A stretch of 64,000 nucleotides of DNA from Candidatus Kaiserbacteria bacterium (GCA_016217925.1 JACRFK010000009.1:33191-97190), one strand, 5' to 3'. Counted from the stretch's first letter, positions 28,527-55,760 are shown. Translations and numbers: made by a program. The notes: a model not told the origin generated them from the letters alone.

Positions 28527-28690
28527 GGATGTAGCGGTTTTCTCCGCTCAAAATCACGCACGTTCGCGTATTGACGTTTACGAGTTCTGTCTTTGGATAC
28601 GCGAAAAGCGTTGACAGGGCAATGGACAAGTATATCTTTGGGGGCGGCGAGTTCTCACTGCTTTATTGTTTCTAATATTCCCAAAGGCTT

Positions 28691-30502
28691 ATGACGTTGA
28701 CATCACGAAGGATGTCGGCGGGGCTCGCGACGCTTTTCGCGATACTCGCGGCCGGCACCCTTCTCTTGGGAAACCAGCGTCTAGCTCATGCAGAAGTACC
28801 TCCGAATCTGGGAAGTCAGATCGTTTGTAGAGTATTTACCGACTTAAACCATATCGGACCGCCAATACCGCTTTTCCCAGGCGATTGTCAAAATCCTCCG
28901 GGCTCCCCCCCGCAGTGTTCCGACGGTATCGACAATGATGCCGACGGACTCGCAGACTATCCGGCGGATACAGGCTGCTCGAGTACGAGCGACAACACCG
29001 AAGCGCCGAATCCGCCTCCGCCGCCCCAATGCTCGAACGGGAGCGACGACGATAATGACAGCTTTACAGACCAAAACGACCCAAATTGCCACACCGATGG
29101 CGACCCGACCAATTCTGCAACGTACAACCCGAATGGCACCGAAGCGGGCAGCCTTCCCGCATGCTGGAATGGCGTAGACGATGATGGCGATGGGCTCAAA
29201 GACTTCCCGGCCGACCCCGGATGCACTTCGGCGCTTGACACCAGTGAATCAAACACGCCGACGCAGGGTCCGGAAAATACCCTTGCATTATGTTCAGACG
29301 GCATTGATAACGACGCCGATAGCAAAGTAGACCTTGCTGATCCGGATTGTGCAGGCTTCCAGGCGAAATTGGTCGTTGTGAAGATAGTTGTGAACGATAA
29401 CGGCGGCACCAGTGTGGCGTCGGACTTTTCTTTGCACATAGCTACAAGCTCTACAGGCTCTGCGGAAGCAATCGGCGTATCATCCGGCGCCACGACGACC
29501 GTGCATACGGGTACATGGACGGTGAGCGAGGTACAAAAATCCGGATATACGGCCACCTTTGGCGGTGATTGCAATACGAGCGGGCAGGTAACACTGGGAG
29601 CTGGGGAAACCAAGACGTGCACTATCACCAATAACGACATCGCGCCGTCCGCTCCGGCGTGTTCCGACGGTATAGACAACGACAACGACGGTAAAATCGA
29701 CAGCGTAGACCCCGGGTGCAGCGATGCAAACGACACGGATGAAGCAAATGCTCCGGAGTCACCCGCGTGCTCCGACGGTCTGGACAACGATGACGACGAC
29801 CTGATAGATAGCGCAGACCCCGGCTGCAACGACAGCAATGATACTGATGAAACGAACACGCCGCCGTCCTCGGGGGGTGGTGGCGCTGGCGGAGGCGGAG
29901 GTGGCGGAGGTGGGATAGGTCCTGACCTCATCTCGCCCGGCGGAGCCATATTCACGGCGGGGCCGACTGCTGCTGTCCTTGGGGTTGCAACGACGACCGC
30001 GCTTTTACCGGCCCTTGTGCTCAAACCAAAGGAATCGTGCGACATGTACGTTACGTCCTTTATAAAAAGCGGTGCAAAGAATGACGCAGATCAAGTACGA
30101 CGTCTCCAGCATGTATTGCGCGAATATGAAGGCGCCAAGATCGAGATACATGGTGTCTATGACGAACCGACTCTCGCGGCAGTGCACACATTCCAGAGCA
30201 AGTATGCCCAAGACGTATTGACCCCTTGGGGAATTACCAAGTCAACGGGCTTCACGTATCTCACGACACGCAAGAAAATAAACGAGGTGTATTGCCGCGG
30301 CACCAAACAATTCCCGCTCACGACCGCCGAGCAGCAGACAATAGTAAAATCACGTTCACCGATACAGCCACTTTCGCCAACTTCAACGAAGATCGCACCG
30401 GCGGCATCTCCTTCCCCACTTCCCGCGGAAGCGGTCCCTGAAACGGCAAAAAGCTTGTGGCAGCGTCTCCTCGACGTGGTAAAAGGAGCACGAGGGCAAT
30501 AG
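28691..30502 (+). CDS. Cell-surface protein, tandem paralog of 26109..28526 (TSP3-like repeats, one Cna-B/prealbumin-like domain, PG_binding_1)
   Basis: First 60 aa nearly identical to the upstream gene (QIVCRVFT.LN.IGPPIP.FPGDCQNPP). DNDxDG repeats. KLVVVKIVVNDNGG..DFSLHI...GTWTVSEVQKSGYTA...C.TITNND. PG_binding_1-like VRRLQHVLREYEGAKIEIHGVYDEPTLAAVHTFQSKY. Confidence 0.8.
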   Translation: MTLTSRRMSAGLATLFAILAAGTLLLGNQRLAHAEVPPNLGSQIVCRVFTDLNHIGPPIPLFPGDCQNPPGSPPQCSDGIDNDADGLADYPADTGCSSTSDNTEAPNPPPPPQCSNGSDDDNDSFTDQNDPNCHTDGDPTNSATYNPNGTEAGSLPACWNGVDDDGDGLKDFPADPGCTSALDTSESNTPTQGPENTLALCSDGIDNDADSKVDLADPDCAGFQAKLVVVKIVVNDNGGTSVASDFSLHIATSSTGSAEAIGVSSGATTTVHTGTWTVSEVQKSGYTATFGGDCNTSGQVTLGAGETKTCTITNNDIAPSAPACSDGIDNDNDGKIDSVDPGCSDANDTDEANAPESPACSDGLDNDDDDLIDSADPGCNDSNDTDETNTPPSSGGGGAGGGGGGGGGIGPDLISPGGAIFTAGPTAAVLGVATTTALLPALVLKPKESCDMYVTSFIKSGAKNDADQVRRLQHVLREYEGAKIEIHGVYDEPTLAAVHTFQSKYAQDVLTPWGITKSTGFTYLTTRKKINEVYCRGTKQFPLTTAEQQTIVKSRSPIQPLSPTSTKIAPAASPSPLPAEAVPETAKSLWQRLLDVVKGARGQ

Positions 30503-30504
30503 AG

Positions 30505-30530
30505 AAAAGCACATAGGTCGGTTCTCTGTG
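30505..30530 (+). repeat. REP-like 26-nt repeat, copy A (variant ...ctctgtg)
   Basis: gaaaagcacataggtcggttctctgtg, 40 nt upstream of the RAYT-like gene. Confidence 0.6.
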
Positions 30531-30543
30531 CTAAAATCCGGTC

Positions 30544-31242
30544 ATGCTGCGAAAAACACCCCTTCTCTCTGGAGAGACCTATCATATCTACAATAGGGGT
30601 GCGCATAAGTACGCGACCTTCACAGACGAGTCAGACTACTGGCGCTTTTCTGCGCTCCTCCATCTCGCAAATCACTCCGGCCCTGTATTGTTGCGTGAGA
30701 TTCTTGAGCGCAAAAAGCACATAGGTCGGTTCTCGGGGGAGATTTTTACTGAACAAACTGACAAGTCTCTTGTTGATTTGCTGGCATATTCACTTATGCC
30801 GAATCATTTCCATTTTGTCATCAGGCAAAAAATGGATAACGGGATCACAAAGTTTATGCAAAAACTGACCGTGTCTTATTCAATGTACTTCAATACCAAG
30901 TATGAGCATAGCGGCGTTCTATTCCAAGGCCGCTTCAAGAGCAGCCACTTAGGTACCGACCCGTACTTCAAATGGATCTTTTCCTATATCCATCTCAATC
31001 CGGTCTCTCTCGTCGAACCACAATGGAAGGAAAAAGGTATTGGCAACCCCGCGCAGTCGAAGGAATTTCTCAGAAACTATCGACACTCAAGCTACTACGA
31101 CTACTACGTGGGGGAGCGACCCGAGCGAGCAATTCTTGCGTACGATGAGGCGGTCGGTCTTCTGGACAAAGAGGCCGATCTTCAAGATATGCTAGCGGCG
31201 TATGTGAATGGCAGAGCTCTCTATTCCAACTCCAACGTATAA
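30544..31242 (+). CDS. tnpA: HuH Y1 transposase, IS200-like / REP-associated tyrosine transposase (RAYT)-like (COG1943)
   Basis: YHIYNRGAHK near the N-terminus. LMPNHFHFVI (HuH). Conserved Y in the C-terminal half. Paralogous to 55009..55704. Confidence 0.75.
   Translation: MLRKTPLLSGETYHIYNRGAHKYATFTDESDYWRFSALLHLANHSGPVLLREILERKKHIGRFSGEIFTEQTDKSLVDLLAYSLMPNHFHFVIRQKMDNGITKFMQKLTVSYSMYFNTKYEHSGVLFQGRFKSSHLGTDPYFKWIFSYIHLNPVSLVEPQWKEKGIGNPAQSKEFLRNYRHSSYYDYYVGERPERAILAYDEAVGLLDKEADLQDMLAAYVNGRALYSNSNV
30713..30738 (+). repeat. REP-like repeat, copy B (in-frame inside the transposase ORF, encodes KKHIGRFSGE)
   Basis: aaaagcacataggtcggttctcgggg. Confidence 0.6.
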
Positions 31243-31268
31243 AAAAGCACATAGGTCGGTTCTCGGGG
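31243..31268 (+). repeat. REP-like repeat, copy C (immediately after the transposase stop)
   Basis: aaaagcacataggtcggttctcgggg. Confidence 0.65.
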
Positions 31269-31550
31269 ATTTGACAAGGGCGGGTTGTTGTATAAGATTC
31301 CACGCCGGAGACCGTAGTCTCATAGAAAAAAGAAAGTGTCCTTTTGAAGAGACTTCAGAGCGGACCCGAGACCGACAGCTTTCGCTGGTTTCCCTAGGGC
31401 TTGGGTCCACTCTGGAACCTCTCCATGATGAAATTATAACTCGCGCCCGGGAAAGCACGTCGCTATCTGTGTATATTTAGGCATATTGCCCGAAAAAGAG
31501 CCTCTGTTGCAACGCGGATATACACACGCTTGTCCACAGCTTGTACACGG

Positions 31551-31576
31551 AAAAGCACATAGGTCGGTTCTCGGCG
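31551..31576 (+). repeat. REP-like repeat, copy D (variant ...tcggcg)
   Basis: aaaagcacataggtcggttctcggcg, in the intergenic region. Confidence 0.6.
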
Positions 31577-31660
31577 GTCTTAAAGCCAAGATTTCACTAG
31601 GGAGATTGACGGATAGTAATTGATTGTGTCGTATTGCATAAAATAGGCGAAATATCATTG

Positions 31661-31695
31661 ACCTGGCGCGCGATAGATACATAATGGCTGCAACG
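31661..31695 (+). promoter_or_regulatory. Putative sigma70-like promoter in the long intergenic region
   Basis: TTGACC - 16 nt - CATAAT. Followed by ~130 nt of hairpin-rich sequence ending in ggttcgcttttttatttt (31815-31835). Confidence 0.3.
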
Positions 31696-32052
31696 TTGCG
31701 TGTGTGCCCCGCATTCAGAGGGGCAGACGCGACGAGGGGAACCAGCGACATAGTATGGTCGCTGTAGGAAACAATCGTAAAGGACAGAATCTAAAGAGGC
31801 GGAGCACTCAGCTTATGGGTGGTTCGCTTTTTTATTTTGCTATCGGACAGGCTGAGGTGGAGAGCACAGCACGCTGCGCTTAAGAGACAAGCGCGTCGTG
31901 CCGTGAACTCCACGTTTCCGAGTCCGCCTCGGCGGAGGAGGAGAAGGGAAGTTCACATAAGGGTCGATAACCTATCGTCGCGTGCGCAAATTTATTAGCA
32001 AGCGAGACGGTGGATTTACCAGATTCATTAAAAAAAATCAAAACAAAACATT

Positions 32053-32769
32053 ATGCAAAACACATACGGAAAGGCAGCGGCTATCGCAACGTCGGTAGCT
32101 ATGGCTTTGGGAACATTCGGATTCGCAGCTCCTGCGTTCGCAGCTGTGAACTCTTCGAGCATCACGATCTCGATAACGAACCGTGGCTCGATCGACAACA
32201 CGACACAGGCTGATGCGCACACGGGCCAGAACATTGCGCTCGGAAGCCAGGGTGGCTTGGGCGGCAACGGCGGCTCAGTTACCTCGGCTGGCAGTGAGAA
32301 CAACGGCGGTGCGACAGCCGGCAACGGCGGCAACGGCGGCAATGGTGGAGCTGGTGGCCTCGTGACTACGGGTAACGCTTCGGCGGACGCTGGCACGCAG
32401 AACGGCCTCAACGGCACCGACGCAACAATTGAATTCGATTGCGCATGTGGTGACCTCAACAGTGTTACTGTTGGCGTAACAATCGACAACGACCGCGAGT
32501 TCCCAACCCAGAACAACATCGACAACACGACACAGGCACGTGCTCGCTCAGGGCAAAATCTTGCCGATGGCAGCACAGGTGGCGATGCAGGAACGGGTGG
32601 TGACGTGACCGGTGGCTCGGGCAGCGAGAACAACGGTGGCGCAACGAGCGGCAACGGCGGCAACGGCGGCTCGGGCGGTCTCGGCGGCGAAATCGCCACG
32701 GGCAGCGCAACCAGCAAGTCTGGTTCTGTCAACATGTTGAACACAACGATCCTTCGCGTTCGCATGTAA
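32053..32769 (+). CDS. Secreted Gly/Asn-rich repeat protein (238 aa), internal duplication
   Basis: Signal peptide (AFAAV). Two copies of ITNRGSIDNTTQA.A.TGQN.A.GS.GG..G...VT.G.ENNGGAT.GNGGNGG.GG.GG. C-terminal TGSATSKSGSVNMLNTTILRVRM. Confidence 0.65.
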   Translation: MQNTYGKAAAIATSVAMALGTFGFAAPAFAAVNSSSITISITNRGSIDNTTQADAHTGQNIALGSQGGLGGNGGSVTSAGSENNGGATAGNGGNGGNGGAGGLVTTGNASADAGTQNGLNGTDATIEFDCACGDLNSVTVGVTIDNDREFPTQNNIDNTTQARARSGQNLADGSTGGDAGTGGDVTGGSGSENNGGATSGNGGNGGSGGLGGEIATGSATSKSGSVNMLNTTILRVRM

Positions 32770-32916
32770 TCTCTGGGACTAAAGTACTTGCTTTAGTTGC
32801 AGAAGTTCTTGGAGGGTCGGTACCGCCGCCGGCGGTACCGACCTCCGGAGAGTCCTTCTTAGGGAAGGAAGGTTCTCCGGAGGGAAGCCTCTTAGCAAAA
32901 CAATATAAATAAAAAT

Positions 32917-33474
32917 ATGACAAAAACACACGGTAGAACAATGACTCTCTTCGCCGCATGCGGGCTCATTCTCGCGGGGATGTTCTTCTTGATGCCGCGC
33001 GGAGCGGACGCAGCGCAGACCACCTCCCGACTCGGCGGAGGCAATGCGCTTCTGCGGGCAACGGTTGGTCTGTTGCACGCGAGCTCCACAAGCGACATCC
33101 TCGCGCACCTCACTTTTGCGAGTACGCGTGGTGTCCCCGGTACCACATCCTCGCAAAGCTCGGATGGCTACGGGGCAGGCGAGAATGATACGGCGAACGA
33201 TACGGGAGGCAGCACTGCCGGTGGTGTCGACGGCTCGCAGGGAAACTCGGGTGAACCAGCCCCACAAGGGAACGCAAACGACAACGGCGGCAACCCCATT
33301 GGAAACTCTGCGAGTTCCAACGGGGCAGGCGGCGGCGCTACTGCCGGTAACGGAGGAGATGGCGGCAACGGAGGAGGTGCAGCGGCAGGAGGATTGGTGC
33401 GAGCAGGGAACGTCGTCTCGAACGCGAATGCGTCAAATGCGATAAACGTGACCACTGTTCGTATCAGCCGATAA
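32917..33474 (+). CDS. Secreted Gly/Asn-rich protein (185 aa), paralog of 32053..32769
   Basis: Signal peptide. G/N-rich. C-terminal LVRAGNVVSNANASNAINVTTVRISR matches the C-terminus of the upstream gene. Confidence 0.6.
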   Translation: MTKTHGRTMTLFAACGLILAGMFFLMPRGADAAQTTSRLGGGNALLRATVGLLHASSTSDILAHLTFASTRGVPGTTSSQSSDGYGAGENDTANDTGGSTAGGVDGSQGNSGEPAPQGNANDNGGNPIGNSASSNGAGGGATAGNGGDGGNGGGAAAGGLVRAGNVVSNANASNAINVTTVRISR

Positions 33475-33682
33475 TCCAAAAAACAGTATGACAACACATC
33501 TCGCAAAAAACAGCATTATAGGAACAATACTCATCGGCGCACTTTTGGCCCCGATGTTCGCCTTTGCCCAACCGTGCTCGCCTCGCCCCGGTAGCGGCGT
33601 GAGGACCCCAAGCGCCTTCAACGACATGAATGCTGTTATGGCCCGATTTCACCGCTAAGGCTAAGGAAAAGAGCACCATGGT

Positions 33683-34123
33683 ATGACAAAAACAACACAA
33701 AAAGCACATAGGTCGGTTCTCGGGGGAATGGCGGCACTTATCTTTCTCGCGGTGTTTTTAATTGCTTTTAATGCGTATGCAGATGGGGGCGCCGCGCGGG
33801 ACCGCGGGACATCCGGCCGCACCACTACTCCTACTCCACCACCACCTCCACCACCGAGCCCTGCACCGGTGCCGGTGCCGCCATCCTCAAATCCGTCCGG
33901 CGGTATTACGAACGTAACGACTGGAGAGGTTGATTCGGGCGGCAATACCGGCGGCAATGTTACGACAGGAGACGAGAGCGTGGAGATAACGGTCGTAAAT
34001 ATCGGGCCGACGAATAGTTCCCAATCGGTAATTATCCCGGGCCCGACTCCACCTCCCACGCCGGAGTGTGACTCGCGTACTCGGACAGGATGCGAGACGC
34101 AGGGTCCAGACCGCACACGTTAG
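33683..34123 (+). CDS. Secreted Pro/Gly-rich protein, same family (true start probably Met at 33728)
   Basis: After copy E of the REP-like repeat comes MAALIFLAVFLIAFNAYA (signal peptide), then PPPPPPPSP and ITNVTTGEVDSGGNTGGNVTTGDESVEITVVNIGPTN. Overlaps the next gene by ~50 nt if the track end is used. Confidence 0.5.
   Translation: MTKTTQKAHRSVLGGMAALIFLAVFLIAFNAYADGGAARDRGTSGRTTTPTPPPPPPPSPAPVPVPPSSNPSGGITNVTTGEVDSGGNTGGNVTTGDESVEITVVNIGPTNSSQSVIIPGPTPPPTPECDSRTRTGCETQGPDRTR
33700..33725 (+). repeat. REP-like repeat, copy E
   Basis: aaaagcacataggtcggttctcgggg just upstream of the signal-peptide start. Confidence 0.65.
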
Positions 34124-34169
34124 GAGGAACTATTATCCTTTATTGATTATTAATTTAGAAAATAAATAT

Positions 34170-36131
34170 ATGACAAACAAACTAACCACTCTCATCGCAA
34201 CGTTCATCGCCGTCGCTGCGCTGCTTGCCTTTGGGGGGGTCCGCGCCTTCGCCGCCTCCTCGCTTTTCGGCGGCGCGTCGCTCGGGCTTGGCTATGTAAG
34301 CCTCGTCTCGGATGGAAGCGACAACCCAGGCAATACGACGAACGATTGGAGTGAAGTATCGTTCGACGACATGAACGGCGTGACGTTCTCAGATCTCGCA
34401 GTTTTGAGCGCCGATTTTGACGTGACGGATGATAGCTGTGGTGGCGGATCTCCTCGCTTCCAGATCGCCATTGATGACGATAACGACACCGTCTCCGACG
34501 GCAACATCTTTGTGTATCTCGGCCCATCTCCATCATTTTCAGGATGCACGGGAGGCTGGCAGAACTCTGGCAATCTCATCGGGAACGAAGACGCGGGAAG
34601 ATGGGACTACACACAACTCGGTGGGCCTTTGGGCGGTTATAGCGGAGCGACTGCAAGCATTCAAAACGGCAAGATCCTCGGCATCAGCATTGTAGTTGAC
34701 AGCTACTGGAGCGCGGCCGCGACTGGCGGTGATTCAGAGATGACCACAAATATAGACAACGTGGTTATGAAAAAACTCGTCGGCTCGACCTACGACTTCG
34801 AAGCGCCGGCAACTGTCACCGTTAGCATCGTGAAGTACGTGGACGGTGTGCACGCGACGGCGGGGAATGCGAGCAGCCTTTCGTTCCCAATAGATGCAAC
34901 GTGGAATGCCGTGAATATCGGCGCAGGCGCAGGAAGCTTCGCACTCTCGACCATCGGCTTCAACAATCCGAATCCGTATGAGGCGACGACTGCGGAAATG
35001 ACGAGCGGCGCTGACTACTCGGTAAGCGAGGACACGAGTGGACCAAATGTGGGCGCGAGCTGTGCCGACAACAAGCCGTTCGCTCTCGCAGGATATTCGA
35101 CCGGCGATACCGAGGGCGCGGCTGCAGGCGCTGCGACGTCATCGAGCGCTGTTCTCGCCGGCATTACGACCGACAAGTTCATTATCGTGTGGAACGAAAC
35201 CTGCGAGGATGAAGGGACGTTAACGTTGCAAAAGACCGTTGTCACCGACAGCGGCGGCACGGCCACCGACACCGATTGGACGCTCTCTGCTTCCGGCCCG
35301 ACGCCGATCTCGGGCGTGGAGGGCAATGCGAGCGTCACAAACGCAGTTGTGCTTGCGGGTACCTACGACCTCTCTGAATCGGGCCCAGGCGGATACACAG
35401 CTTCCGATTGGGTCTGCACCGCAAATGGCGGCGGGCCCGCGCCTACCTTCGTGCAGGATGATGGCGACACGATAACGATAAGTGATGGAGATGACATCAC
35501 GTGCGTCATCACAAACGACGACGACTTCGTACCAACTCCGCCTCCTTCTCCGACTGCATGCGACACACCGGGCGTGGCGCCGTTCGGGTACACCCTCCAG
35601 AATGGCACGGCGGGTAACGACAACGTCACTATCGCGCCATTCACCATGTTCGTCGGGTTTGGCGGCTACGACACGGTGAACGGACCTGCCGACGGGAACT
35701 ACATCGTCTGCACCGGAGCCAAGACCGACAAAATCACGCTCGGAAATGGTGACTTCACGATAAGTGCGGGAGAGGGACACAACAACATCACAACGGGGAA
35801 TGGCAACGGCTACATCGTGACGGGCAGCGGTAACGACCAGGTAAAGACAGGTAACGGGACACAAACGATACAAGCGGGTGAGGGTTACAACTGGATCTTG
35901 ACCGGTGATGGCGATAAGAACGTAACAACCGGCAGTGTGGGCGATCAGATATACACCGGCGCGGGCTCCGACACGATAAACGCGGGCGGTGGATACAATA
36001 AGGTCAACTCAGGTGCAGGAAACGACACAATTACGTCCGGCCCCAACAACGACAACATCGACGGCGGTGCAGACTTCGACACGTGCAATGGGGGAGGTGG
36101 ATACGACGCAATAACGAACTGCGAGGCGTAA
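34170..36131 (+). CDS. Large secreted protein with Cna-B/prealbumin-like domain and C-terminal RTX-like (GGxGxD) beta-roll repeats
   Basis: Start set at MTNKLTTLIATFIAVAALLAFGGVRAFAA (signal peptide). LTLQKTVVTDSGGTATDTDWTLSASG...GTYDLSESGPGGYTASDWVC.......ITCVITNDD. C-terminal ~150 aa of TGNGNGYIVTGSGNDQVKTGNGTQTIQAGEGYNWILTGDGDKNVTTGSVGDQIYTGAGSDTINAGGGYNKVNSGAGNDTITSG (nonapeptide-like Ca-binding repeats). Confidence 0.7.
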   Translation: MTNKLTTLIATFIAVAALLAFGGVRAFAASSLFGGASLGLGYVSLVSDGSDNPGNTTNDWSEVSFDDMNGVTFSDLAVLSADFDVTDDSCGGGSPRFQIAIDDDNDTVSDGNIFVYLGPSPSFSGCTGGWQNSGNLIGNEDAGRWDYTQLGGPLGGYSGATASIQNGKILGISIVVDSYWSAAATGGDSEMTTNIDNVVMKKLVGSTYDFEAPATVTVSIVKYVDGVHATAGNASSLSFPIDATWNAVNIGAGAGSFALSTIGFNNPNPYEATTAEMTSGADYSVSEDTSGPNVGASCADNKPFALAGYSTGDTEGAAAGAATSSSAVLAGITTDKFIIVWNETCEDEGTLTLQKTVVTDSGGTATDTDWTLSASGPTPISGVEGNASVTNAVVLAGTYDLSESGPGGYTASDWVCTANGGGPAPTFVQDDGDTITISDGDDITCVITNDDDFVPTPPPSPTACDTPGVAPFGYTLQNGTAGNDNVTIAPFTMFVGFGGYDTVNGPADGNYIVCTGAKTDKITLGNGDFTISAGEGHNNITTGNGNGYIVTGSGNDQVKTGNGTQTIQAGEGYNWILTGDGDKNVTTGSVGDQIYTGAGSDTINAGGGYNKVNSGAGNDTITSGPNNDNIDGGADFDTCNGGGGYDAITNCEA

Positions 36132-36160
36132 ATTATCAAATTAGTAATTACGAATAAATT

Positions 36161-36565
36161 ATGAACACATCAGTAACTCAGAAAACGTATGTAGTGGCCC
36201 TCGTGATACTTCTGGCAGTCCTTGCCTACATCGCGCTTGCGCCGACTGCGGACGCAAGCACACAAGTAGGGGGGAGATCAGACCGCACGCGCGAAGTAGG
36301 AGCCCCGTTGCCCGGAGGCACGGGCGGCACCGGAGGTTCGCAGGGCGGGACATCGGGAGAAAGCGGACAGTCCGGAGATTCGTCAACCAACGAAACATTG
36401 GACCAGGAGGCAGCACAGGCGCTCATCGATGAGATAGTAGACAACGTGCCAAACGAAAGCGACTTCCCGAGCCAAAGTGACATCGATGAAGCGACCGACC
36501 CGCCCACGATTCCCGGCTTTCTCGCCCTCTTCAATACGTTCCTCACACGCTTCCGGGATAGATAG
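36161..36565 (+). CDS. Small secreted acidic protein
   Basis: TM/signal segment VVALVILLAVLAYIALAP. Gly/Ser-rich. Acidic C-terminal half. Confidence 0.5.
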   Translation: MNTSVTQKTYVVALVILLAVLAYIALAPTADASTQVGGRSDRTREVGAPLPGGTGGTGGSQGGTSGESGQSGDSSTNETLDQEAAQALIDEIVDNVPNESDFPSQSDIDEATDPPTIPGFLALFNTFLTRFRDR

Positions 36566-36703
36566 TTGCCGGAACATCTCTGCTACGTGGGAGGGAATGG
36601 ATAGGTGGGAAATATGCCCTCAGTAGAGCCAAGATTCTCCTTTTCTCGGGGCCTTGACCTGTCTGTCCTTGAGAGGTAAAACTGGAGGCCCAGAGAGCGA
36701 ATT

Positions 36704-39700
36704 ATGATCAAAGTATTGTCAATATCAGAATCGAGAATAATGGCTGTATTCCTAGCTATAGCCATTATCTACACCCCGATAGCCCCCGCTGTCCTTTATG
36801 CTCAAGTGGCGACCACCACCGAGACCACCACGGAAACGAGGGCAGAGAGAGATAGAAATGCGGATACCGCGCCCCCGACCATCGAGCCTCACGCGAACGT
36901 AAACGCCGAAGCAACGTCTGAAGCCGGTGCCGTCGTTTCATACACTTCGCCCGCTACGACAGACGATGTAGACGGTGCGGGCGTCGCCTCGTGCTCTCCT
37001 CCTTCGGGCTCCACCTTCCCGGTCGGTAATACAGTGGTGACCTGTACCGCGACCGATGTCGCAGGCAACACGGCTACGATGTCGTTCTATATAAAAGTTG
37101 CCGCTCTTCCGCCGCCCGACACCGCCACGACCACTCCCGATGTCGCCACAAGCACGCCCGACATTATTGCAACGAGTACTCCCGACATTATTGCCACAAG
37201 CACTCCCGATGTCGCGACCAGCACTCCGGAGACAACTCCACCCGACGACCCGTCCGCCGCTTCGACCGCGTCCGCCAATTCGGCAGAAATTCCTCCGGAC
37301 CAATCCGGTACCGACAATACTGATTTCCAAAATATCATCAATGGAGGATCTGCAACTACCACGGACGATACACTACCTATCATCAATGCGAGCGCGACCT
37401 CGACAGAGGCACTCGCCCTTGATCCCAAGCTCTCCGTCGCCACTTCAACGGACGGCACCGGCTCGAAATTTGGCGGCACGATATTCACGGGAAGCGCCGT
37501 TGCCTCCACGACGGTCAACAATACTCTCAACATCACGCGCTCGAACGTAGACGGCCCCGGAGTGACCAACAGCTCCCACATCACTGCAGATACCGATAAC
37601 ACTGGTACCGTGACGACGGCCGATGATACGCGGGCGTTCACCGGAGACAACAATGGCTTCGGCGGAGAGGGCAATGCGACCATTTACACAGGCAACGCCG
37701 TCTCCTCCGCGCGGGTCTTAAACGTCGTCAACACCAACTTTTTCAATTCGACCGGTCTCGTACTCTTTCTCAACCCGCAAAATGGCGACGGCCTTGACCT
37801 GCGCACCGCCAATCTCTCGTACCTCATCGCCGGTGGTGTAGGGGCTTCCCCGACCAATCTAGGATGCACCATCCTCACGTGTCTCAATAGCGCGACATTG
37901 CAGATACTCAATAAAAACGTCGGCACCATCAACAACAACGTCCTTGTGCGTGCCTCGACAGGCGGCAATGCTGCGACTTCGACCAAGGAAGGAGGCATCG
38001 ACATACGGACGGGCGACGCATACGCTTCCGCAGCCGTCTTGAACCTCGTCAATACGAATTTCATCAACTCAAAATATTTTGTCGCGACATTCGATAATTT
38101 CGGCAGTATGCAGGGCGACGTCGTACTACCCGACGCAGGCTTTTTCAGGACATTCTTCAAGAACGGCAATACGCTGCCCGACCTCAATTCGAGTTCGTAC
38201 ATCGTCTCGAATGACAACGAAGAGACATTCGTGGGGACGACTACCGCCAATGCGCTTACCGGAGGAAACATCGCTACGACCACGAGCCCGGGTGACGGCC
38301 ACGGGGAAATAAAGACCGGACAAGCCTACACGTCGTCTACAAGCTACACCGCCGCCAACCAAACACACGTCGGTGGCTCATCGGCGCTGTTCGTGTTCCA
38401 CGTATCCGGCGCGTGGAACGGCACCGTCAAAGGCTTGCCCGAAGGCATGTCGTGGCGCCGTACCGATTACGGCATCGAGGTCTACAGTTCCGGCAACAAC
38501 TTGTCCACGAGCACACAAGGTATCTACAATTCGGCAACATTCATCGCTTCTTCGACCAACAGGGCGACCGTGAGAACCGACGTGAACGTCTGGGCTGAGA
38601 CCGGTGAGAACCGCGCGCAGACCGAGAACGGTACCTCGACCATCGCGACAGGAGACGCCTATGCGACCGCCAACGTCGTCAACATGGTGAACACCAACGT
38701 CGTCAACAGGAACTTCATGTTCGCCGTGTTCAATATATCCGGCGATTGGAACGGGGACATCGACTTCGGAGGCCACAGCCCGAACATGAAGGTGACGACG
38801 ACGGTGGACGCACCAAACCCCACGGCCCCGAACTCCGATGTCACCTACCACCTCACTGTTGCGAATAATGGCAGTGTTGATGCGGACAACGTCGTTCTTT
38901 CGGCAGCATACAACAAAAGCCTCCTCTTCATCTCGAGAAGCAACGGGCTCAGTTCGGATACCTCGACCGGTACAAAGTGGGACCTCGGCCGTATTCCTGC
39001 GGGAGGTACTCGTGAAATAATCGCGACCGCGCGCGTATCCGCTCCGGGCCTCTCCGCCGGGTTCTCGATGACCCTACCCTTGACGGCGACCGTCTCATCC
39101 AGTCTTCGAGATCAGGACGATGCCGACAATACACAGAGCGTCTCGGTCGTCGTCTCTTTGCCGGAAAGCGGAAGTACCGGAGGTGATACTACCAACACGG
39201 ATACCCGAGACAGAGGAGACCGCACGGATACCGGCAGCACTCCTCCGCCACCGCCACCCTCTGGAGGCGGAGGCGGCGGTGGAGGCGGCGGTGGAGGAGG
39301 CGGAGGCGGCAGTACCCCACCACCCTCCGGCGGCGGCGGCACGCCACCGCCCGCGGGCAGCGGAACCACCACCCCACCACCCGGCACTACTACCACTCCA
39401 CCACCGGCCTCAAATAACGGTACGAGTCCCTCGACAAACTCGGGCTCTTCGGGTGGCGGAGGTTCTACGCCCGCGAGCACGAATAATGGCGTATTCGTCG
39501 GCAACAACGCCATCGCGACGACATGGGAGCCGAACCCCGAGATAACGGTGGTAAAGACATCGAGTATCGTGAAGACGACAGCGCCCGCGACGGTGGACTA
39601 CAAAGTGATAGTGAGGAATAGCAAGAACGCGGGCGCGGCGTTCCGCGGACTGCTCACCGACATACTCTACAATCCGAAGGGGGCCGTTATGTCCAATCGT

Positions 39701-40381
39701 TCGTGGGACCTCGAGACGATAGTCCCCGGCGATGAGATAACGCTCACGTACACCGTTGAATACGCCACGAGTACTGCTCCGGGTAAGTATCACAACGTAG
39801 CGCGAGTGACCGCGAAGCGCAATTCGTCTATTGCCACAGCGCCCGATATAACGCCCGTTGAGGCGTCCCGAGATGTTGAATTTGGCTCCAACGGTCTTGT
39901 ACTTGGGGTTTCTACATCGAGCCCGAAGTTTGCGAGCTCGACCATCACCGTCGCGCCCACCTCCTGCGTCCCGCTCCTCACGACCTTTATGAAACAGGGG
40001 CAAGCGAACGTACCATCCGAGGTCGTAAAACTGCAGACATTTCTCAATACGGAAGGCGCACGGCTTCCGACGACCGGATTCTTCGGGTCCATGACGACGG
40101 CAGCCGTCAAGAACTTTCAGCTCAAATATAAGAGTGAGGTCCTGACACCGCTCGGACTTACGAGACCCACCGGCAATGTGTACGGCTCGACCCAAAGAAA
40201 GATAAACCAACTGAACTGTGGCGGGACAACGACCTATATGGAGAACGCACCTGCGGTATCTGCATCTGCGGTGAAGCCGGCGTCGAAGAAAGCTGCGGCC
40301 CCCGCGAAAGCTCCCGCGGCACCGAAGTCGTCCGGATTGCTCAACGCCGTCGGCTCGCTGTTCTCGAAGAAGTGGTGGTAA
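36704..40381 (+). CDS. Giant cell-surface protein (1225 aa): HYR-like domain, TSTPDIIA short repeats, TG(N/D)A..V.N.VNTN repeats, two DUF11-like domains, C-terminal PG_binding_1 and Lys/Ala-rich tail
   Basis: Signal/TM segment. HYR-like PPTIEPHANVNAEATSEAGAVVSYTSPATTDDVDGAGVASCSPPSGSTFPVGNTVVTCTATDVAGNTATMSFYIKV. Repeats IYTGNAVSSARVLNVVNTNFFNS / RTGDAYASAAVLNLVNTNFINS / ATGDAYATANVVNMVNTNVVNR. DUF11-like VTYHLTVANNGSVDADNVVL. Poly-Gly then Pro-rich stretch. PG_binding_1-like VVKLQTFLNTEGARLPTTGFFGSMTTAAVKNFQLKY. Confidence 0.8.
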   Translation: MIKVLSISESRIMAVFLAIAIIYTPIAPAVLYAQVATTTETTTETRAERDRNADTAPPTIEPHANVNAEATSEAGAVVSYTSPATTDDVDGAGVASCSPPSGSTFPVGNTVVTCTATDVAGNTATMSFYIKVAALPPPDTATTTPDVATSTPDIIATSTPDIIATSTPDVATSTPETTPPDDPSAASTASANSAEIPPDQSGTDNTDFQNIINGGSATTTDDTLPIINASATSTEALALDPKLSVATSTDGTGSKFGGTIFTGSAVASTTVNNTLNITRSNVDGPGVTNSSHITADTDNTGTVTTADDTRAFTGDNNGFGGEGNATIYTGNAVSSARVLNVVNTNFFNSTGLVLFLNPQNGDGLDLRTANLSYLIAGGVGASPTNLGCTILTCLNSATLQILNKNVGTINNNVLVRASTGGNAATSTKEGGIDIRTGDAYASAAVLNLVNTNFINSKYFVATFDNFGSMQGDVVLPDAGFFRTFFKNGNTLPDLNSSSYIVSNDNEETFVGTTTANALTGGNIATTTSPGDGHGEIKTGQAYTSSTSYTAANQTHVGGSSALFVFHVSGAWNGTVKGLPEGMSWRRTDYGIEVYSSGNNLSTSTQGIYNSATFIASSTNRATVRTDVNVWAETGENRAQTENGTSTIATGDAYATANVVNMVNTNVVNRNFMFAVFNISGDWNGDIDFGGHSPNMKVTTTVDAPNPTAPNSDVTYHLTVANNGSVDADNVVLSAAYNKSLLFISRSNGLSSDTSTGTKWDLGRIPAGGTREIIATARVSAPGLSAGFSMTLPLTATVSSSLRDQDDADNTQSVSVVVSLPESGSTGGDTTNTDTRDRGDRTDTGSTPPPPPPSGGGGGGGGGGGGGGGGSTPPPSGGGGTPPPAGSGTTTPPPGTTTTPPPASNNGTSPSTNSGSSGGGGSTPASTNNGVFVGNNAIATTWEPNPEITVVKTSSIVKTTAPATVDYKVIVRNSKNAGAAFRGLLTDILYNPKGAVMSNRSWDLETIVPGDEITLTYTVEYATSTAPGKYHNVARVTAKRNSSIATAPDITPVEASRDVEFGSNGLVLGVSTSSPKFASSTITVAPTSCVPLLTTFMKQGQANVPSEVVKLQTFLNTEGARLPTTGFFGSMTTAAVKNFQLKYKSEVLTPLGLTRPTGNVYGSTQRKINQLNCGGTTTYMENAPAVSASAVKPASKKAAAPAKAPAAPKSSGLLNAVGSLFSKKWW
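37129..37240 (+). repeat. Short tandem coding repeats (21-24 nt x ~5) encoding TPD(V/I)(A/I)ATS
   Basis: actcccgatgtcgccacaagc / acgcccgacattattgcaacgagt / actcccgacattattgccacaagc / actcccgatgtcgcgaccagc. Confidence 0.65.
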
Positions 40382-40392
40382 GTTCATTCGTT

Positions 40393-40842
40393 ATGAGGAA
40401 CATGCTCCGTAAAATCACAGCGATTTCTCTATTTGTACCGCTGTTTGCGTACGCGGAAGTGCTTCAGAGTACGAGCGTATCCTCATCGTACAGCGGAGGC
40501 GTAGTCGTTGCCGCCGAGGCGACGTCGACCGGGGAGTCAAGCGCGTCTGCAGATATCAGGGCGACTGTGAGGAGCGGGAAGGGCGGCGTGTGGGTAGAGA
40601 TAACGACAGAGAAAGACGGTGTACGGCGGACAGAGGTCCGACAAGGGGACGTGTCACCGGAACGATCTGTCACTGTTTCTATCGCGACGAGTAGCGGAGC
40701 CGGGGTTCCTGCCGGAGAAGCGCGCGCCACGAGGGGAGGGAATGCTACGACAAGCGCTCAGCGCGCTTCCGGGGCTCTACGTATTTGGAGCGAGAATCTT
40801 CGAGCTCTCCTGAGGAACTTTTTCCGTCAATTCTCCCGCTAA
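40393..40842 (+). CDS. Small secreted hypothetical protein
   Basis: Start set at MRNMLRKITAISLFVPLFAYA (signal peptide). Ser/Thr/Gly-rich. Confidence 0.5.
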   Translation: MRNMLRKITAISLFVPLFAYAEVLQSTSVSSSYSGGVVVAAEATSTGESSASADIRATVRSGKGGVWVEITTEKDGVRRTEVRQGDVSPERSVTVSIATSSGAGVPAGEARATRGGNATTSAQRASGALRIWSENLRALLRNFFRQFSR

Positions 40843-40849
40843 CTACCAA

Positions 40850-40875
40850 AAAAGCACATAGGTCGGTTCTCGGGG
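40850..40875 (+). repeat. REP-like repeat, copy F
   Basis: aaaagcacataggtcggttctcgggg. Confidence 0.65.
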
Positions 40876-40879
40876 ATTA

Positions 40880-40905
40880 AAAAGCACATAGGTCGGTTCT
40901 CGGGG
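40880..40905 (+). repeat. REP-like repeat, copy G (tandem with F)
   Basis: aaaagcacataggtcggttctcgggg, 4 nt after copy F. Confidence 0.65.
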
Positions 40906-40964
40906 ATTTTTTGGAGGCGTGCTATTGCGCTTGACCTTGACAGAGGACGGTATACACTGGCGGC

Positions 40965-42290
40965 ATGAGTATACGGAGATTTATGTCTTCGGTGTTGCTT
41001 TTGGCTGTCTGTACGGCGTTCACTTTTTTTGCTTTTGTCAATGCGGATGTGCGCGAAGACCGACCCGTGCGGGATGAGGTGGTCGCAGGTCAATACATCG
41101 TCGTTCTCAAAGACTCGGTCGTGGATATCGATACGGCGGAAAATGACATAGTCAAGAATTCCCGTAGTGAGCGATTTAATTCCTACAGAAATACGATCCA
41201 CGGATTCGCCGCTCGCATTCCCGATGCAGAACTCGACGCGGTGAAGAACGACCCGCGTGTCGAATTCGTGAGCGAGGACCGAGTGGTTTCTACTACCGAT
41301 GCCCGCAGCGCGGGAGCGCGTGAGCGCGGTGTAACAGAGCTCGCCAAAAACGGCACTCTCTTTGCCCAGGCGCAGTCACTGCCCACAGGCATCGATCGCA
41401 TCAATGCGGAGAACAAAACCAACAAAGGAGCCGGCGTGCAGGTCGCGGTCATCGACACCGGCATTTACGTAAACCATCCGGACCTCAAGGCAAACGTGCT
41501 CGGCGGCAAAAATTGCATATCGTCGAATAAATCGGCATACATTGACCAGAACGGACACGGCACGCACGTCGCGGGCACTATCGCTGCCCTGGATAACGGT
41601 CAGGGAGTTGTCGGCGTTGCGCCTGCGGCGAAGCTCTGGGCTATACGCGTACTCGACAGAAATGGCAACGGCACGTGGTCGTCGGTCATATGCGGCCTAG
41701 ACGCCGTTGCCGCGAGCGGCCCGAAATACGGCGGCAGTATCACCGTTGCGAACATGAGCCTCGGCGGAAGCGGCACATCCGACAACAACTGCGGCAATAC
41801 CAATAACGACGCCCTGCACAAGGCAGTCTGCCGCGTACGTGATGCGGGCATCACGCTCGTCGTCGCCGCAGGCAACAGTGGCGCTAATGCCGCAAACTTC
41901 GTACCGGCGGCCTACGACGACGCCGTCATCACGGTCTCCGCACTTGCGGACTCGAATGGAACTTCGGGTGGAGGGGGAGCGCCTACTTCCTACGGTGCCG
42001 ACGACACATTCGCATCGTTCAGCAACTGGGGTACGCCGGTAGATATCGGCGCACCGGGCGTCAATATTTATTCAACGTGGCTTTCGAATGGCTACAAAAC
42101 TATTAGCGGCACGAGCATGGCCTCTCCACACGTGGCAGGTGCGGCGGCTCTCTACGTCGCAACGCACCCGGGCGCCTTGTGGACCGACGTGCGCAATGCC
42201 TTGGTCGCCGCGGGGGAAGCCGTCGGGGCAGGGCACACCGACCCTTCAGGAAAACATCCGGAGCTTGTCTTGCGCGCCGATACGCTATAA
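40965..42290 (+). CDS. Subtilisin-like serine protease (S8) with I9 inhibitor propeptide
   Basis: Signal peptide. Propeptide (YIVVLKD...HGFAARI). Catalytic D (VAVIDTGI), H (HGTHVAGTIAA), S (GTSMASPHVAGAAAL). Confidence 0.85.
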   Translation: MSIRRFMSSVLLLAVCTAFTFFAFVNADVREDRPVRDEVVAGQYIVVLKDSVVDIDTAENDIVKNSRSERFNSYRNTIHGFAARIPDAELDAVKNDPRVEFVSEDRVVSTTDARSAGARERGVTELAKNGTLFAQAQSLPTGIDRINAENKTNKGAGVQVAVIDTGIYVNHPDLKANVLGGKNCISSNKSAYIDQNGHGTHVAGTIAALDNGQGVVGVAPAAKLWAIRVLDRNGNGTWSSVICGLDAVAASGPKYGGSITVANMSLGGSGTSDNNCGNTNNDALHKAVCRVRDAGITLVVAAGNSGANAANFVPAAYDDAVITVSALADSNGTSGGGGAPTSYGADDTFASFSNWGTPVDIGAPGVNIYSTWLSNGYKTISGTSMASPHVAGAAALYVATHPGALWTDVRNALVAAGEAVGAGHTDPSGKHPELVLRADTL

Positions 42291-49357: not shown

Positions 49358-49430
49358 CCACTAGCCATTAGGAAAATGCAATTAGTACAAGTTCCTCGAA
49401 GCATCCTAGTGGCTAACCCCTAGTGGCTAA
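49353..49430. promoter_or_regulatory. Inverted/direct repeat cluster between the cPGI and ROK genes
   Basis: attagccactagccattag (49353-49371) is complementary to cctagtggctaa (49405-49416), which is repeated at 49419-49430. Confidence 0.35.
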
Positions 49431-49441
49431 TTACTAATTCT

Positions 49442-54357: not shown

Positions 54358-54996
54358 ATGGCAATACTGACCAAAGACGAGATATTGGCGCGCGTAAAGA
54401 AGGGCAACATTGAATTCAAGCCCGGCCTCGACCGTTTCCAACTGCAGATGCATGCGGTGGACCTACGGCTCGGATTTACATTCCTGATACCCAAGGCCTG
54501 GAAGATGACCGCGAAGGGGAGGCAAGCGCTCAGTCTCGACCCGCTCAAGGACCACGGGCCCGAATATTTTGACGTCATCGAGCTCGAACAAGGTCAGTGC
54601 TTCGAACTCCTTCCGCAGGAATACGTACTCGTATCGACATTCGAGACGATAAAAGTGCCCAATGACCTGATGGCAGTTCTTTATCCGCGCTCGTCGGTCA
54701 ACCGCAAAGGGCTTTCCGTCGACCTCACGGGAATCATCGATTCGGGTTATGAAGGACCGCTCACGCTTCCCATCCGCAACAATACGAATTCCCAGGTCAT
54801 CCAACTGCACCCAGGCGAGCGTTTCTGCCAGATTGTCTTTGAAGAGCTCACGCACAAAGTGGAGCCAAAGAAATCGCGTTGGCACCAGAAGGATGTCGTG
54901 GAGAAGGGCAAGAAAGAAAAAGCGGCGGAAATGAAACTCGTATTTAACGGCGACCTCAAAAAATTGAAAAAGGATTTCTCCGCTACCGACCAATGA
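54358..54996 (+). CDS. dcd: dCTP deaminase (dUTPase-fold)
   Basis: N-terminal MAILTKDEIL. Typical dcd length 212 aa. GIIDSGYEGPLTLPIRN motif (dUTPase motif III-like). Confidence 0.7.
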   Translation: MAILTKDEILARVKKGNIEFKPGLDRFQLQMHAVDLRLGFTFLIPKAWKMTAKGRQALSLDPLKDHGPEYFDVIELEQGQCFELLPQEYVLVSTFETIKVPNDLMAVLYPRSSVNRKGLSVDLTGIIDSGYEGPLTLPIRNNTNSQVIQLHPGERFCQIVFEELTHKVEPKKSRWHQKDVVEKGKKEKAAEMKLVFNGDLKKLKKDFSATDQ

Positions 54997-55731
54997 GATG
55001 ACATCTCATTGTGTTATGCTAGGTCAATGGCAAATCGCCCGCCATTCGAGATAGAGGAGTGGTACCACTGTTTCAATCGAGGGGTTGAAAAGCGGAAAGT
55101 CTTTGAAGATGAAAATGACGCGAAGCGATTTCTGATGTTGCTATACCTCGCGAATGGCACGGCGCCGATTGAGATTTTTAATGATCCCAAACCCTCACTC
55201 AAAAAAGTCTTTGAAACAGACCGCGGGGACCCCGTTGTTGGAGTGGGCGCGTTCTGTCTCATGCCAAACCACTTCCATCTCTTATTGAAAGAAACGACGG
55301 AGGGAGGAATTAGTTCCTTTATGAAAAAAGTCGGTATCGCCTACGTGATGTATTTTAACGCCAAGAACGAGCGTGTCGGGAACCTTTTTATAAAACCTTT
55401 CCGCTCTCGGCATATTGCAACTGATAGTTATTTTCAACACGTTCTCCAGTACATACATTGCAACCCGGCGGAGTTGTATGAGCCGGGCTGGAAAGAGGGC
55501 AAGGTTCGGAGTATGCGTTCTCTGGAAAACAAACTTCTGAACTATCCCTACTCAAGCTTCGCAAGCTATGGAGAGAGAAAGGCCATCAGCCCTATTCTTT
55601 CTGCAGATGGATTTGACGTTGCGAATCAGTTGCCGGTCTCTCGTATGCTCGAAGACGCGAGATCCTATTACGCGCAAGTCGCTCAGGAACGATTCGAGAA
55701 GTAGTCCAAAACAATGAGATGACATCTCATT
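54992..55731 (+). mobile_element. IS200/IS605-family element (tnpA only) bounded by identical 19-nt perfect palindromes
   Basis: aatgagatgacatctcatt + gtgtt at 54992-55015 and again at 55713-55736, flanking a HuH Y1 transposase gene. Inserted between dcd and folA. Confidence 0.7.
55009..55704 (+). CDS. tnpA: IS200-like HuH Y1 transposase
   Basis: WYHCFNRGVEK. CLMPNHFHLLL (HuH). Conserved C-terminal Tyr region. Paralog of 30544..31242. Confidence 0.75.
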   Translation: MCYARSMANRPPFEIEEWYHCFNRGVEKRKVFEDENDAKRFLMLLYLANGTAPIEIFNDPKPSLKKVFETDRGDPVVGVGAFCLMPNHFHLLLKETTEGGISSFMKKVGIAYVMYFNAKNERVGNLFIKPFRSRHIATDSYFQHVLQYIHCNPAELYEPGWKEGKVRSMRSLENKLLNYPYSSFASYGERKAISPILSADGFDVANQLPVSRMLEDARSYYAQVAQERFEK

Positions 55732-55760
55732 GTGTTTTCTGTAGATGCTATATTTTCTAA

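Follow-up and report, generated by a model that had tools for sequence, protein, structure and literature searches.

Repetitive extragenic palindromes (REPs) and REP-associated tyrosine transposases (RAYTs, also TnpA_REP) make up REPtrons, in which cognate REPs flank the RAYT gene (Nunvar 2010, PMC2817692; see also Bertels and Rainey 2011, PMC3116915) and one enzyme is matched by one cognate repeat (PMC6006769). TnpA_REP co-evolves with REPs and cleaves and joins single-stranded REPs in vitro (Corneloup 2021, PMC8266576); the activity known in vitro is cleavage and joining, without a transposition pathway. In subclass 2.4, REPs are found in frame inside tnpA_REP itself (Quentin et al. 2018, PMC6006769, Fig. 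S10), and REPs also occur in frame within host protein genes (Di Nocera 2013, PMC3733652). Proteins of subclass 2.1 (also group 1 RAYTs of Bertels, TIRYTs) are about 238 amino acids long and carry NH[YF]H, FQ, Y[IV]HLNP and, in the proximal tail, SS (PMC6006769). Long terminal inverted repeats with GGGGWSAS accompany the subclass in some cases, and it was reported to lack REP-like sequences nearby (PMC6006769; bioRxiv 10.1101/119735; PMC3733652). Here, we describe a 26-nt repeat family and a RAYT-like Y1 HUH gene in a 64,000-nt stretch of DNA (hereafter the window) from Candidatus Kaiserbacteria bacterium (GCA_016217925.1, JACRFK010000009.1:33191-97190), which belongs to the candidate phyla radiation (CPR, or Patescibacteria). 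We consider it somewhat more probable than the alternatives together (about 0.6) that a CPR bacterium here carries a REPtron-like RAYT/REP system in which one copy of the repeat is fixed inside the gene and co-evolves with the others. On this best-supported reading, the 26-mer is the window lineage's partly decayed version of a REP-like hairpin element cognate to the Y1 protein.

The 64-kb window was searched for the 26-mer allowing up to 3 mismatches. As stated in the original prediction, there were exactly seven matches, at 30505, 30713, 31243, 31551, 33700, 40850 and 40880, all on the + strand; the chance expectation is none, with 0 matches in 100 dinucleotide shuffles. An 18-nt core (GCACATAGGTCGGTTCTC) was invariant in all seven copies, and their 3' tails read CTCGGGG(A/G) in five, CTCGGCG in one and CTCTGTGC in copy 30505. 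Copies with 1-4 mismatches were absent from all 64 kb, nhmmer added nothing, and the repeat family is therefore all or none. Boundaries of the repeat were sharp, and the sequences flanking the copies were unrelated to one another. All seven copies fell within 10.4 kb around the Y1 gene, with none in the remaining 53.6 kb, and copies 30505, 31243 and 40850 start 0-5 nt beyond stop codons. Two copies had been placed on either side of the Y1 gene and the rest in intergenic positions or at gene 5' ends; this description fails for copy 30713, which lies inside the Y1 gene, and for copy 33700, which lies inside the open reading frame (ORF) 33683..34123 and is read there in a frame other than that of the Y1 in-gene copy. 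The peptide PENRPMCF, also pointed out earlier in antisense ORFs, is indeed encoded on the minus strand, but ORF 40839..41201 simply reads through the tandem pair, and nothing suggesting a real gene was seen for it. This pair has a period of 30 nt and lies about 60 nt upstream of a subtilase gene (40965..42290).

Several other identities for the repeat were considered and rejected. Regular spacers, as in a CRISPR-like array, were absent, the copies being 208, 530, 308, 2149, 7150 and 30 nt apart. At gathering threshold, Rfam identified only four tRNAs in the window, and a known RNA family was dismissed. Decayed fragments of a Y1 pseudogene were rejected because similarity stops sharply at 26-30 nt. 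From the sequence alone, a sigma-54 or extracytoplasmic function sigma factor promoter was dropped for its unsuitable consensus spacing, and a DNA-uptake sequence for a copy density that is far too low. A phage or viral origin was rejected, as there were no repeat matches among viral contigs. Among GTDB species representatives, an exact 20-mer of the repeat occurred on three contigs of the metagenome-assembled genome (MAG) MFKT01 and on one of MFMA01, and it was also found on 10 metagenome contigs. In related MAGs, copies were present on contigs without a nearby Y1 gene as well (L001, L003/L010, L009, L011 and L004).

The Y1 protein carries an HUH motif (H88-F-H90), a catalytic Y148 in YIHLNP, FQ at 127-128 and SS at 182-183, and has the class-2 signature (HUH plus Y---NP). 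Among 30 orthologues, down to 53% identity, N87-H88-x-H90, Y148-x-H-L-N-P, F127-Q128 and S183 are invariant and S182 is nearly so. By motif comparison (NHFH, FQ, YIHLNP and the SS tail), the protein matches the signature of TnpA_Y1 subclass 2.1. In the profile comparison that had been proposed, the best NCBIfam match was NF047646 (REP_Tyr_transpos) at 36.9 bits, below its curated cut-off of 80, compared with 18.7 bits for the IS200 profile. The AlphaFold model (predicted local distance difference test [pLDDT] 77, predicted template modelling score [pTM] 0.79) gave as its top Foldseek match 4ER8_A, the Escherichia coli RAYT bound to a REP hairpin (E 8e-4, probability 1.0), followed by the IS608 and ISDra2 transposases; a profile search of PDB sequences returned no match. 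It is a member of a large protein family of CPR bacteria (2,497 matches at E <= 1e-5), and an identical protein is annotated in Candidatus Kaiserbacteria.

Copy 30713 occupies codons 57-65 of the Y1 gene, 22 codons upstream of the HUH motif, and encodes KKHIGRFSG; the 30-nt version reads K57-K-H-I-G-R-F-S-G-E66. In the AlphaFold model, this segment forms the loop between helix 29-41 and strand 77-84. The peptide ERKK(H/Y)(R/I/K)GRFSGEIF is conserved in the alignment of the 30 orthologues (53-96% identity). Given this conservation of the peptide in the family, the 26-mer was not recently inserted in the gene, and a recent in-frame insertion of the repeat was rejected as its origin. Nucleotide-level constraint acts on the in-gene element. 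In pairwise comparisons of the five closest genomes, third-position identity was 0.96 at codons 58-66, compared with 0.49 gene-wide and about 0.6 at the HUH motif, and it peaked only once across the gene, at these codons. In the window, the in-gene copy is also the only long in-gene k-mer common to the gene and its flanks.

The same arrangement was found when the window was compared with 12 orthologous loci, fetched with 10 kb on either side and encoding proteins of 53-100% amino acid identity (L029, L015, L017, L019, L023, L022, L021, L024, L025, L026, L027 and L028). Among long in-gene k-mers, the sole one that recurs in the flanks lies at codons ~50-66 in 13 of 13 lineages, and each lineage has an element copy centred 21-59 nt before the ATG. 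The sequence of the element varies between lineages yet always agrees between gene and flanks (Table 1), and in most of them it is plainly palindromic. Post-stop copies were seen in eight lineages (the window, L029, L015, L019, L025, L027 and, with two each, L017 and L021), and a post-stop or 3'-terminal copy in 10 of 13; in L022 and L023, a copy follows two co-oriented downstream genes. A second in-gene palindrome occupies the last ~20 codons in L024 (2760-2778), L026 (10703-10719) and L027 (10683-10700), covers a G(R/K)xLY-type motif and is reversed where its orientation can be read; at the 3' end of the window gene there is only a faint echo of it (GGCAGAGCTCTCTAT, ~31210). Other lineages have copies in both orientations and as inverted pairs, and L028 has at least six copies in 16 kb. 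On the best-supported reading, the window locus is a REPtron-like unit with the element at a putative leaderless promoter, in frame at codons 57-65 and after the stop codon, and further copies beyond the unit sit in the neighbouring surface-protein gene cluster. That the repeats are chance occurrences or a purely local, functionless duplication would suit the clustering of the window copies, but this explanation is refuted by the recurrence of the arrangement in 13 independent lineages with lineage-specific sequences; the absence of matches in the shuffled controls also counts against it.

Table 1. Features of the locus in the window, and in-gene elements of the lineages compared
Feature	Position	Strand	Sequence	Remarks
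RAYT-like Y1 HUH gene	30544..31242	+		232 amino acids; Pfam PF01797 (Y1_Tnp), 4e-12
Hairpin-type copy	30505..30531	+	AAAAGCACATAG-GTCGGTT-CTCTGTGC	3 nt past the stop of the upstream gene; abuts the Y1 promoter
In-gene copy	30711..30740	+		inside the Y1 ORF 30544..31242; 30 nt identical to 33698-33727
Post-stop copy, GGGG type	31241..31270	+		begins at the last base of the stop codon; promoter 31271-31298 directly after
Intergenic copy	31551..31576	+		tail CGGCG; between two conserved non-coding blocks
Copy in frame in ORF 33683..34123	33698..33727	+		supplies QKAHRSVLGG to the signal-peptide n-region
Tandem pair	40848..40907	+	AAAAAGCACATAGGTCGGTTCTCGGGGATT	2 x 30 nt; 5 nt past the stop of ORF 40372..40842
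Second, independent REPtron-like unit	54992..55736	+		paralogous Y1 gene 55027..55704, 40% identity
In-gene element, window			CATAGGTCGGTTCTCGG	peptide HIGRFSG
In-gene element, L029			CATAGGTAGGTTCTCGG	peptide HIGRFSG
In-gene element, L015 and L019			CAGAGGTCGG...	peptide HRGRFSG
In-gene element, L023			CAGAGGTAGG...	peptide YRGRFSG
In-gene element, L022			CAGAGGACAGGTCTCTG	peptide HRGQVSG
In-gene element, L021			CAAGGAC-C-GTCCTTG	peptide YQGPSLT
In-gene element, L024			CAAAGGAC-G-GTCCTTTG	peptide YKGRSFA
In-gene element, L025			CAGAGAAC-C-GTTCTCTG	peptide YREPFSE
In-gene element, L026			CAGAGGTC-C-GACCTCTG	peptide YRGPTSG
In-gene element, L027			CCGAGGAC-C-GTCCTCGG	peptide YRGPSSV
In-gene element, L028			ACGAAGGA-GAG-TCCTTCGT	peptide YEGESFV

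The element family is a hairpin with compensatory stem changes. When 46 distinct copies were aligned without gaps and an 11-pair stem was scored, 75.7% of stem cells paired, compared with 26-55% when the 3' partner was slid by 1-3 columns. Double-sided changes were found in 7 of the 11 stem pairs, and the covariation score was reached by 0 of 500 shuffles. As single-stranded DNA, the element folds in most lineages at -5.6 to -11.6 kcal/mol. Within the window, the suggested folding of the repeat separated copy 30505, in which the CTCTGTGC tail completes a stem with GCACA(t)AG (-4.7 kcal/mol, z -4.3), from the five CTCGGGG copies and the CTCGGCG copy, which do not fold (-0.3 kcal/mol, z +0.7 for the GGGG form). 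In the window clade, the inner stem is degenerate and the 3' arm has been lost in most copies. The earlier description of the repeat as not obviously palindromic therefore applies to the window lineage but not to the family, given its covariation and the folds seen elsewhere.

Copies within a genome share substitutions that set them apart from those of other genomes. All seven window copies carry CATAGGTCGG, with a T that, in the gene, replaces an arginine conserved in most orthologues. All four copies of L029, the in-gene copy included, carry CATAGGTAGG with both a T and an A; in the gene these are a non-synonymous AGA>ATA (Arg>Ile) and a synonymous CGG>AGG change. L015 and L019 carry CAGAGGTCGG, and in L015 a G is found in the three copies at the gene and a T in two distal copies. 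L021, L022 and L024-L028 each have a palindrome of their own that is common to gene and flanks. Parallel point mutation eight times over in L029 is implausible, and some process of copying or conversion must therefore be at work. Further, the change of Arg60 to Ile in the in-gene copies of the window and L029 agrees with the copies outside, and information therefore also flows into the gene; the non-folding GGGG copies, for their part, bear bases dictated by the Ser-Gly codons. Judging from these sequences, copying or conversion runs both into and out of the Y1 gene.

In the mechanism that we propose, a dimeric Y1 enzyme would bind the element once it becomes accessible as single-stranded DNA, Tyr148 and an HUH-bound metal would cleave beside it, and the strands would then be rejoined. 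Over time, such cleavage and rejoining could copy, duplicate, invert and homogenise the elements, including the copy in the enzyme's own gene, with the enzyme rather than general recombination as the presumed homogeniser. An alternative is that the copies are targets of an antisense or guide RNA made from the opposite strand of the in-gene segment and track the coding sequence to preserve pairing. This would explain why the GGGG copies match the in-gene sequence over 26-30 nt, codon-dictated bases included, and why all window copies are in sense orientation relative to their genes. We regard it as very unlikely. No minus-strand promoter-like site was found in or after the Y1 gene, so that an antisense promoter inside the gene was rejected; both orientations and inverted pairs occur in other lineages; covariation of the hairpin would be superfluous; and the in-gene Arg-to-Ile change in the window and L029 follows the outside copies, with information entering the gene.

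Copies of the element are also gained and lost. The window and L015 have the in-frame 30-nt segment encoding QKAHRSVLGG, in an ORF of 145 amino acids, and the orthologous ORF of L029, L017, L019 and L021 lacks it. The window copy at 31551 and the copies 600-700 nt downstream of the gene in L015 and L017 lie at different places in an otherwise alignable spacer; they are non-orthologous, which argues for gain and loss. An equivalent site holds one copy, two tandem copies or two inverted copies in different genomes, and at the place of the window tandem pair L017 has an inverted pair that forms a long hairpin followed by a T-run (L017 20600-20665). Two element types, GTACCAAGGACCGTCCTTGACAC and the window-type AAGCACATAGGTCGGTTCTCTGTGCTTTT, stand side by side in L002 (112-175; MFKT01000021). 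The former matches the in-gene sequence of the Y1 orthologue of the same genome, and the one orthologue identified there (P0026, represented by L021) lacks the window-type sequence. Cumulative GC skew rises across the window, which suggests that the + strand, on which all seven copies lie, is the template of lagging-strand synthesis. IS200/IS605-type enzymes are known to prefer the lagging-strand template (PMC6006769), and this placement agrees with that preference, a weak further point.

Upstream of the Y1 gene, an extended -10-like box (TGcTAAAAT, 30529..30537, + strand) ends 6 nt before the ATG, and its TG belongs to the hairpin's 3' arm. Nearly all lineages have a -10 box 6-8 nt before the ATG, usually TGnTAnnnT with the TG likewise contributed by the 3' arm, or else TAnAAT. 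This position suggests that the Y1 mRNA is leaderless. A bound protein or an extruded hairpin would occupy the RNA polymerase site, and on this basis we propose that the promoter-proximal copy probably allows the Y1 protein to repress its own transcription. A promoter that always abuts a copy offers a simple model of autoregulation. A conserved promoter (TTGACA-16-TAAGAT, 31271-31298) also directly follows the post-stop copy.

In another alternative, the elements are purely regulatory, serving as operators, terminators or RNA-stability hairpins; the Y1 protein, its recombination activity lost, would regulate itself and neighbouring genes by sequence-specific binding to DNA or RNA, and the in-gene copy would be an autoregulatory site on the DNA or the mRNA. 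Besides the upstream copy, which always abuts the -10 box of the predicted leaderless promoter, several further copies are followed within 0-60 nt by promoters (the TTGACA at 31271 and the 40939 region), and inverted pairs followed by T-runs, such as that of L017, resemble terminators. One orthologous pair of sites, in L004 and L013, combines 100% identity in the core with ~80% identity in the flanks, and copy number is low and local. However, invariance of the HUH motif and the tyrosine across the 30 orthologues would be unexpected for a pure binder. Genome-private substitutions, such as the two found in all four L029 copies, require copying and not per-site selection alone, and copy number and arrangement vary among relatives. 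A purely regulatory family is thus unlikely, but it is the most substantial of the alternatives.

The genomic setting of the Y1 gene is conserved. One neighbourhood is common to L015, L017, L019, L029 and L021, and a second to L022, L025, L026 and L028; together the two synteny groups take in 10 of the 13 lineages. The neighbours themselves differ between clades, with a SpaA/HYR/PG-binding surface-protein cluster in some and FtsK...L10/L12 in others, and the Y1 gene is therefore the sole constant partner of the element. The gene is vertically inherited in conserved synteny and does not behave as a mobile insertion sequence. It is accordingly extremely unlikely that 30505..31270 is an autonomous IS200/IS605-type insertion sequence with the flanking copies as its end hairpins and the others as miniature derivatives or solo ends, even though same-orientation, subterminal, hairpin-like repeats stand on either side of the gene, the total length would be ~760 bp and there is a weak IS200 profile match. 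In addition to the two conserved neighbourhoods, the window contains no near-identical copy of the gene, its sole other Y1 gene being the 40% identical paralogue; the protein has Y---NP (class 2) rather than the Y---Q of IS200 (PMC6006769), and its length of 232 amino acids differs from the ~150 of such enzymes.

A palindrome of another sequence, AATGAGATG-A-CATCTCATTGTGTT, stands in direct orientation on either side of the paralogue (54992-55015 and 55713-55736) and folds at -6.6 kcal/mol. A comparison of in-gene k-mers with the flanks detected no element copy inside the paralogous gene. Its upstream palindrome abuts TGtTATGCT, with the ATG 7 nt further on, a layout like that at the first gene. 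A paralogue in L002 is flanked by its own, yet other, palindrome with 15-bp arms. A separate palindrome for each paralogue is expected if every enzyme has its cognate repeat and so supports the REPtron logic. Distinct end hairpins, as noted in the original prediction for a copy at 55009, had been proposed as grounds for refuting the REP/RAYT assignment; the paralogue does possess its own palindrome, but the observation favours the assignment rather than refuting it.

A number of points weigh against a REPtron-like system. Cleavage of the element by the Y1 protein is a predicted activity, and host short-tract gene conversion could likewise homogenise nearby copies. The known copies are few and local, with seven in 10.4 kb and the 20-mer on a few contigs of two related MAGs. 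The NF047646 score is far under its cut-off, and the subclass matched by the Y1 motifs has been reported without REP association (PMC6006769). Six of the seven window copies are of the non-folding types, yet it is these that multiplied, which is awkward for a hairpin-dependent enzyme. Finally, GT[AG]G was found at the foot of the hairpin in 0 of the 46 aligned copies, the feet being AAGCA, AAATA, TTTTA and similar. The REP/RAYT arrangement first suggested for this locus is thus partly borne out, by the REP-associated profile and fold as best matches, by the conserved synteny and by cognate repeats in each lineage examined, and departs from that pattern in the missing GT[AG]G head and in the few, local copies known.

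The in-gene copy might be a working part of the system rather than a passenger that is merely tolerated, a protected reference copy of the substrate with information flowing in both directions between it and the outside copies. We offer this proposal tentatively, as a possibility that is on balance doubtful. Were it true, homogenisation would keep rewriting a loop of the enzyme, as in the change of Arg60 to Ile, while the coding copy would reseed the family outside. A domesticated transposase and its substrate would then be physically coupled in evolution, and RAYT activity would have a natural read-out in an uncultured CPR lineage.

Compared with described REPtrons, the locus shares a single, vertically inherited class-2 (Y---NP) Y1 HUH gene and a lineage-specific, co-evolving palindromic repeat on both sides of it. 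Single, tandem and inverted-pair copies that mostly follow genes are also shared, as is the correspondence of two Y1 paralogues to two repeat types. It differs in lacking a GT[AG]G head, in having a handful of known, clustered copies rather than tens to hundreds genome-wide, in the direct orientation of the flanking copies in the window, in the absence of a 3' arm from most copies, in the fixation of one copy in coding sequence, and in its CPR/Patescibacteria host. As in subclass 2.4, a cognate REP lies in the gene of its own enzyme, with the frame kept and in a peripheral loop. Unlike subclass 2.4, the element here is N-terminal of the HUH motif, its codon positions unchanged in 13 of 13 lineages (to 53% identity), it shows a conserved peptide pattern, (Y/H)-x-G-x-x-S, together with compensatory stems and a third-position identity of 0.96, and the enzyme has the NHFH, FQ, Y[IV]HLNP and SS-tail motifs of subclass 2.1. 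With subclass 2.1, it has the key motifs and the length (232 versus ~238 amino acids) in common, but cognate hairpins clearly flank the gene. Rickettsia palindromic elements and intragenic REPs are similar in that in-frame palindromes are tolerated in loops, and copy 33700 is of this kind (PMC3733652); those palindromes, however, reside in unrelated host genes, with no tie to the gene of their own enzyme. IS200/IS605 elements (IS608, ISDra2) share the Y1 HUH fold, subterminal hairpins on one strand that are recognised as single-stranded DNA, and a promoter in the left end, and are distinguished from this locus by its conserved synteny, single copy, class-2 motifs, longer protein and lack of tnpB.

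A literature search pairing RAYT or REP with CPR or Patescibacteria returned nothing relevant. Within the literature searched and to our knowledge, five aspects are new: the REP/RAYT association in CPR bacteria, with a subclass 2.1-like enzyme; an intragenic copy fixed N-terminal of the HUH motif across deep divergence; the compensatory evolution and synonymous-site constraint of that copy; its two-way concerted evolution with the outside copies; and a repeat family that is small and local. REPtron-like systems would thereby be extended to CPR/Patescibacteria and to a TnpA_Y1 subclass reported without REPs. With a substrate copy in the gene of the enzyme, changes in the repeat can be read as amino acid or synonymous changes in a conserved protein, and the small size of the local family makes each copy traceable across related genomes. 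For annotation, such CPR "transposase" genes should not be counted as insertion sequences.

Downstream of the Y1 gene, an ORF-free spacer of ~800 nt (31271-32050) contains three strongly conserved non-coding blocks, with counterparts in L015 (10770-11460), L017 (10810-11600), L019 (5730-6480), L021 (10166-10920) and L029 (from 1327). Two of the blocks sit behind sigma-70-like promoters, TTGACA-16-TAAGAT (31271) and TTGACC-16-CATAAT (31658). Block 1 (~31304-31426) folds into a long helix (GAGAyTTCAGAGCGGACCC...GGGTCCACTCTGGAAcCTC); at the end of block 2 (~31680-31832) stand a terminator-like hairpin and a T-run; and block 3 lies directly upstream of a gene encoding a 238-amino-acid protein. Rfam in E-value mode gave nothing credible on 31200-32100. 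Possibly, these blocks represent CPR RNAs or leaders that have not yet been described.

The Y1 gene is usually found beside genes that encode secreted or cell-envelope proteins of very large size, even in clades with different synteny, and the domains near Y1 loci include SpaA_2, HYR, DUF11/CLIPPER, PG_binding_1, Big_13 and Wzy_C. In the window, two adjacent paralogues at 26109-30502 encode secreted proteins of 805 and 603 amino acids with PG_binding_1 and SpaA_2 domains. This pair contains many ~44-nt repeats encoding C-x-D-G-x-D-N-D-x-D-G, resembling calcium-binding motifs, and tandem units of 132-135 nt at 26333-26990. Two further repeats were observed in the window. An inverted repeat with 24-nt arms, TAGTCATTAGCCACTAGCCATTAG and CTAACCCCTAGTGGCTAATTACTA, which are 41 nt apart and 83% complementary, spans 49348-49436 and is unrelated to the Y1 elements. 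At least three tandem 111-nt units encoding a repeated peptide occupy positions 1-334, within an ORF that runs off the start of the window.

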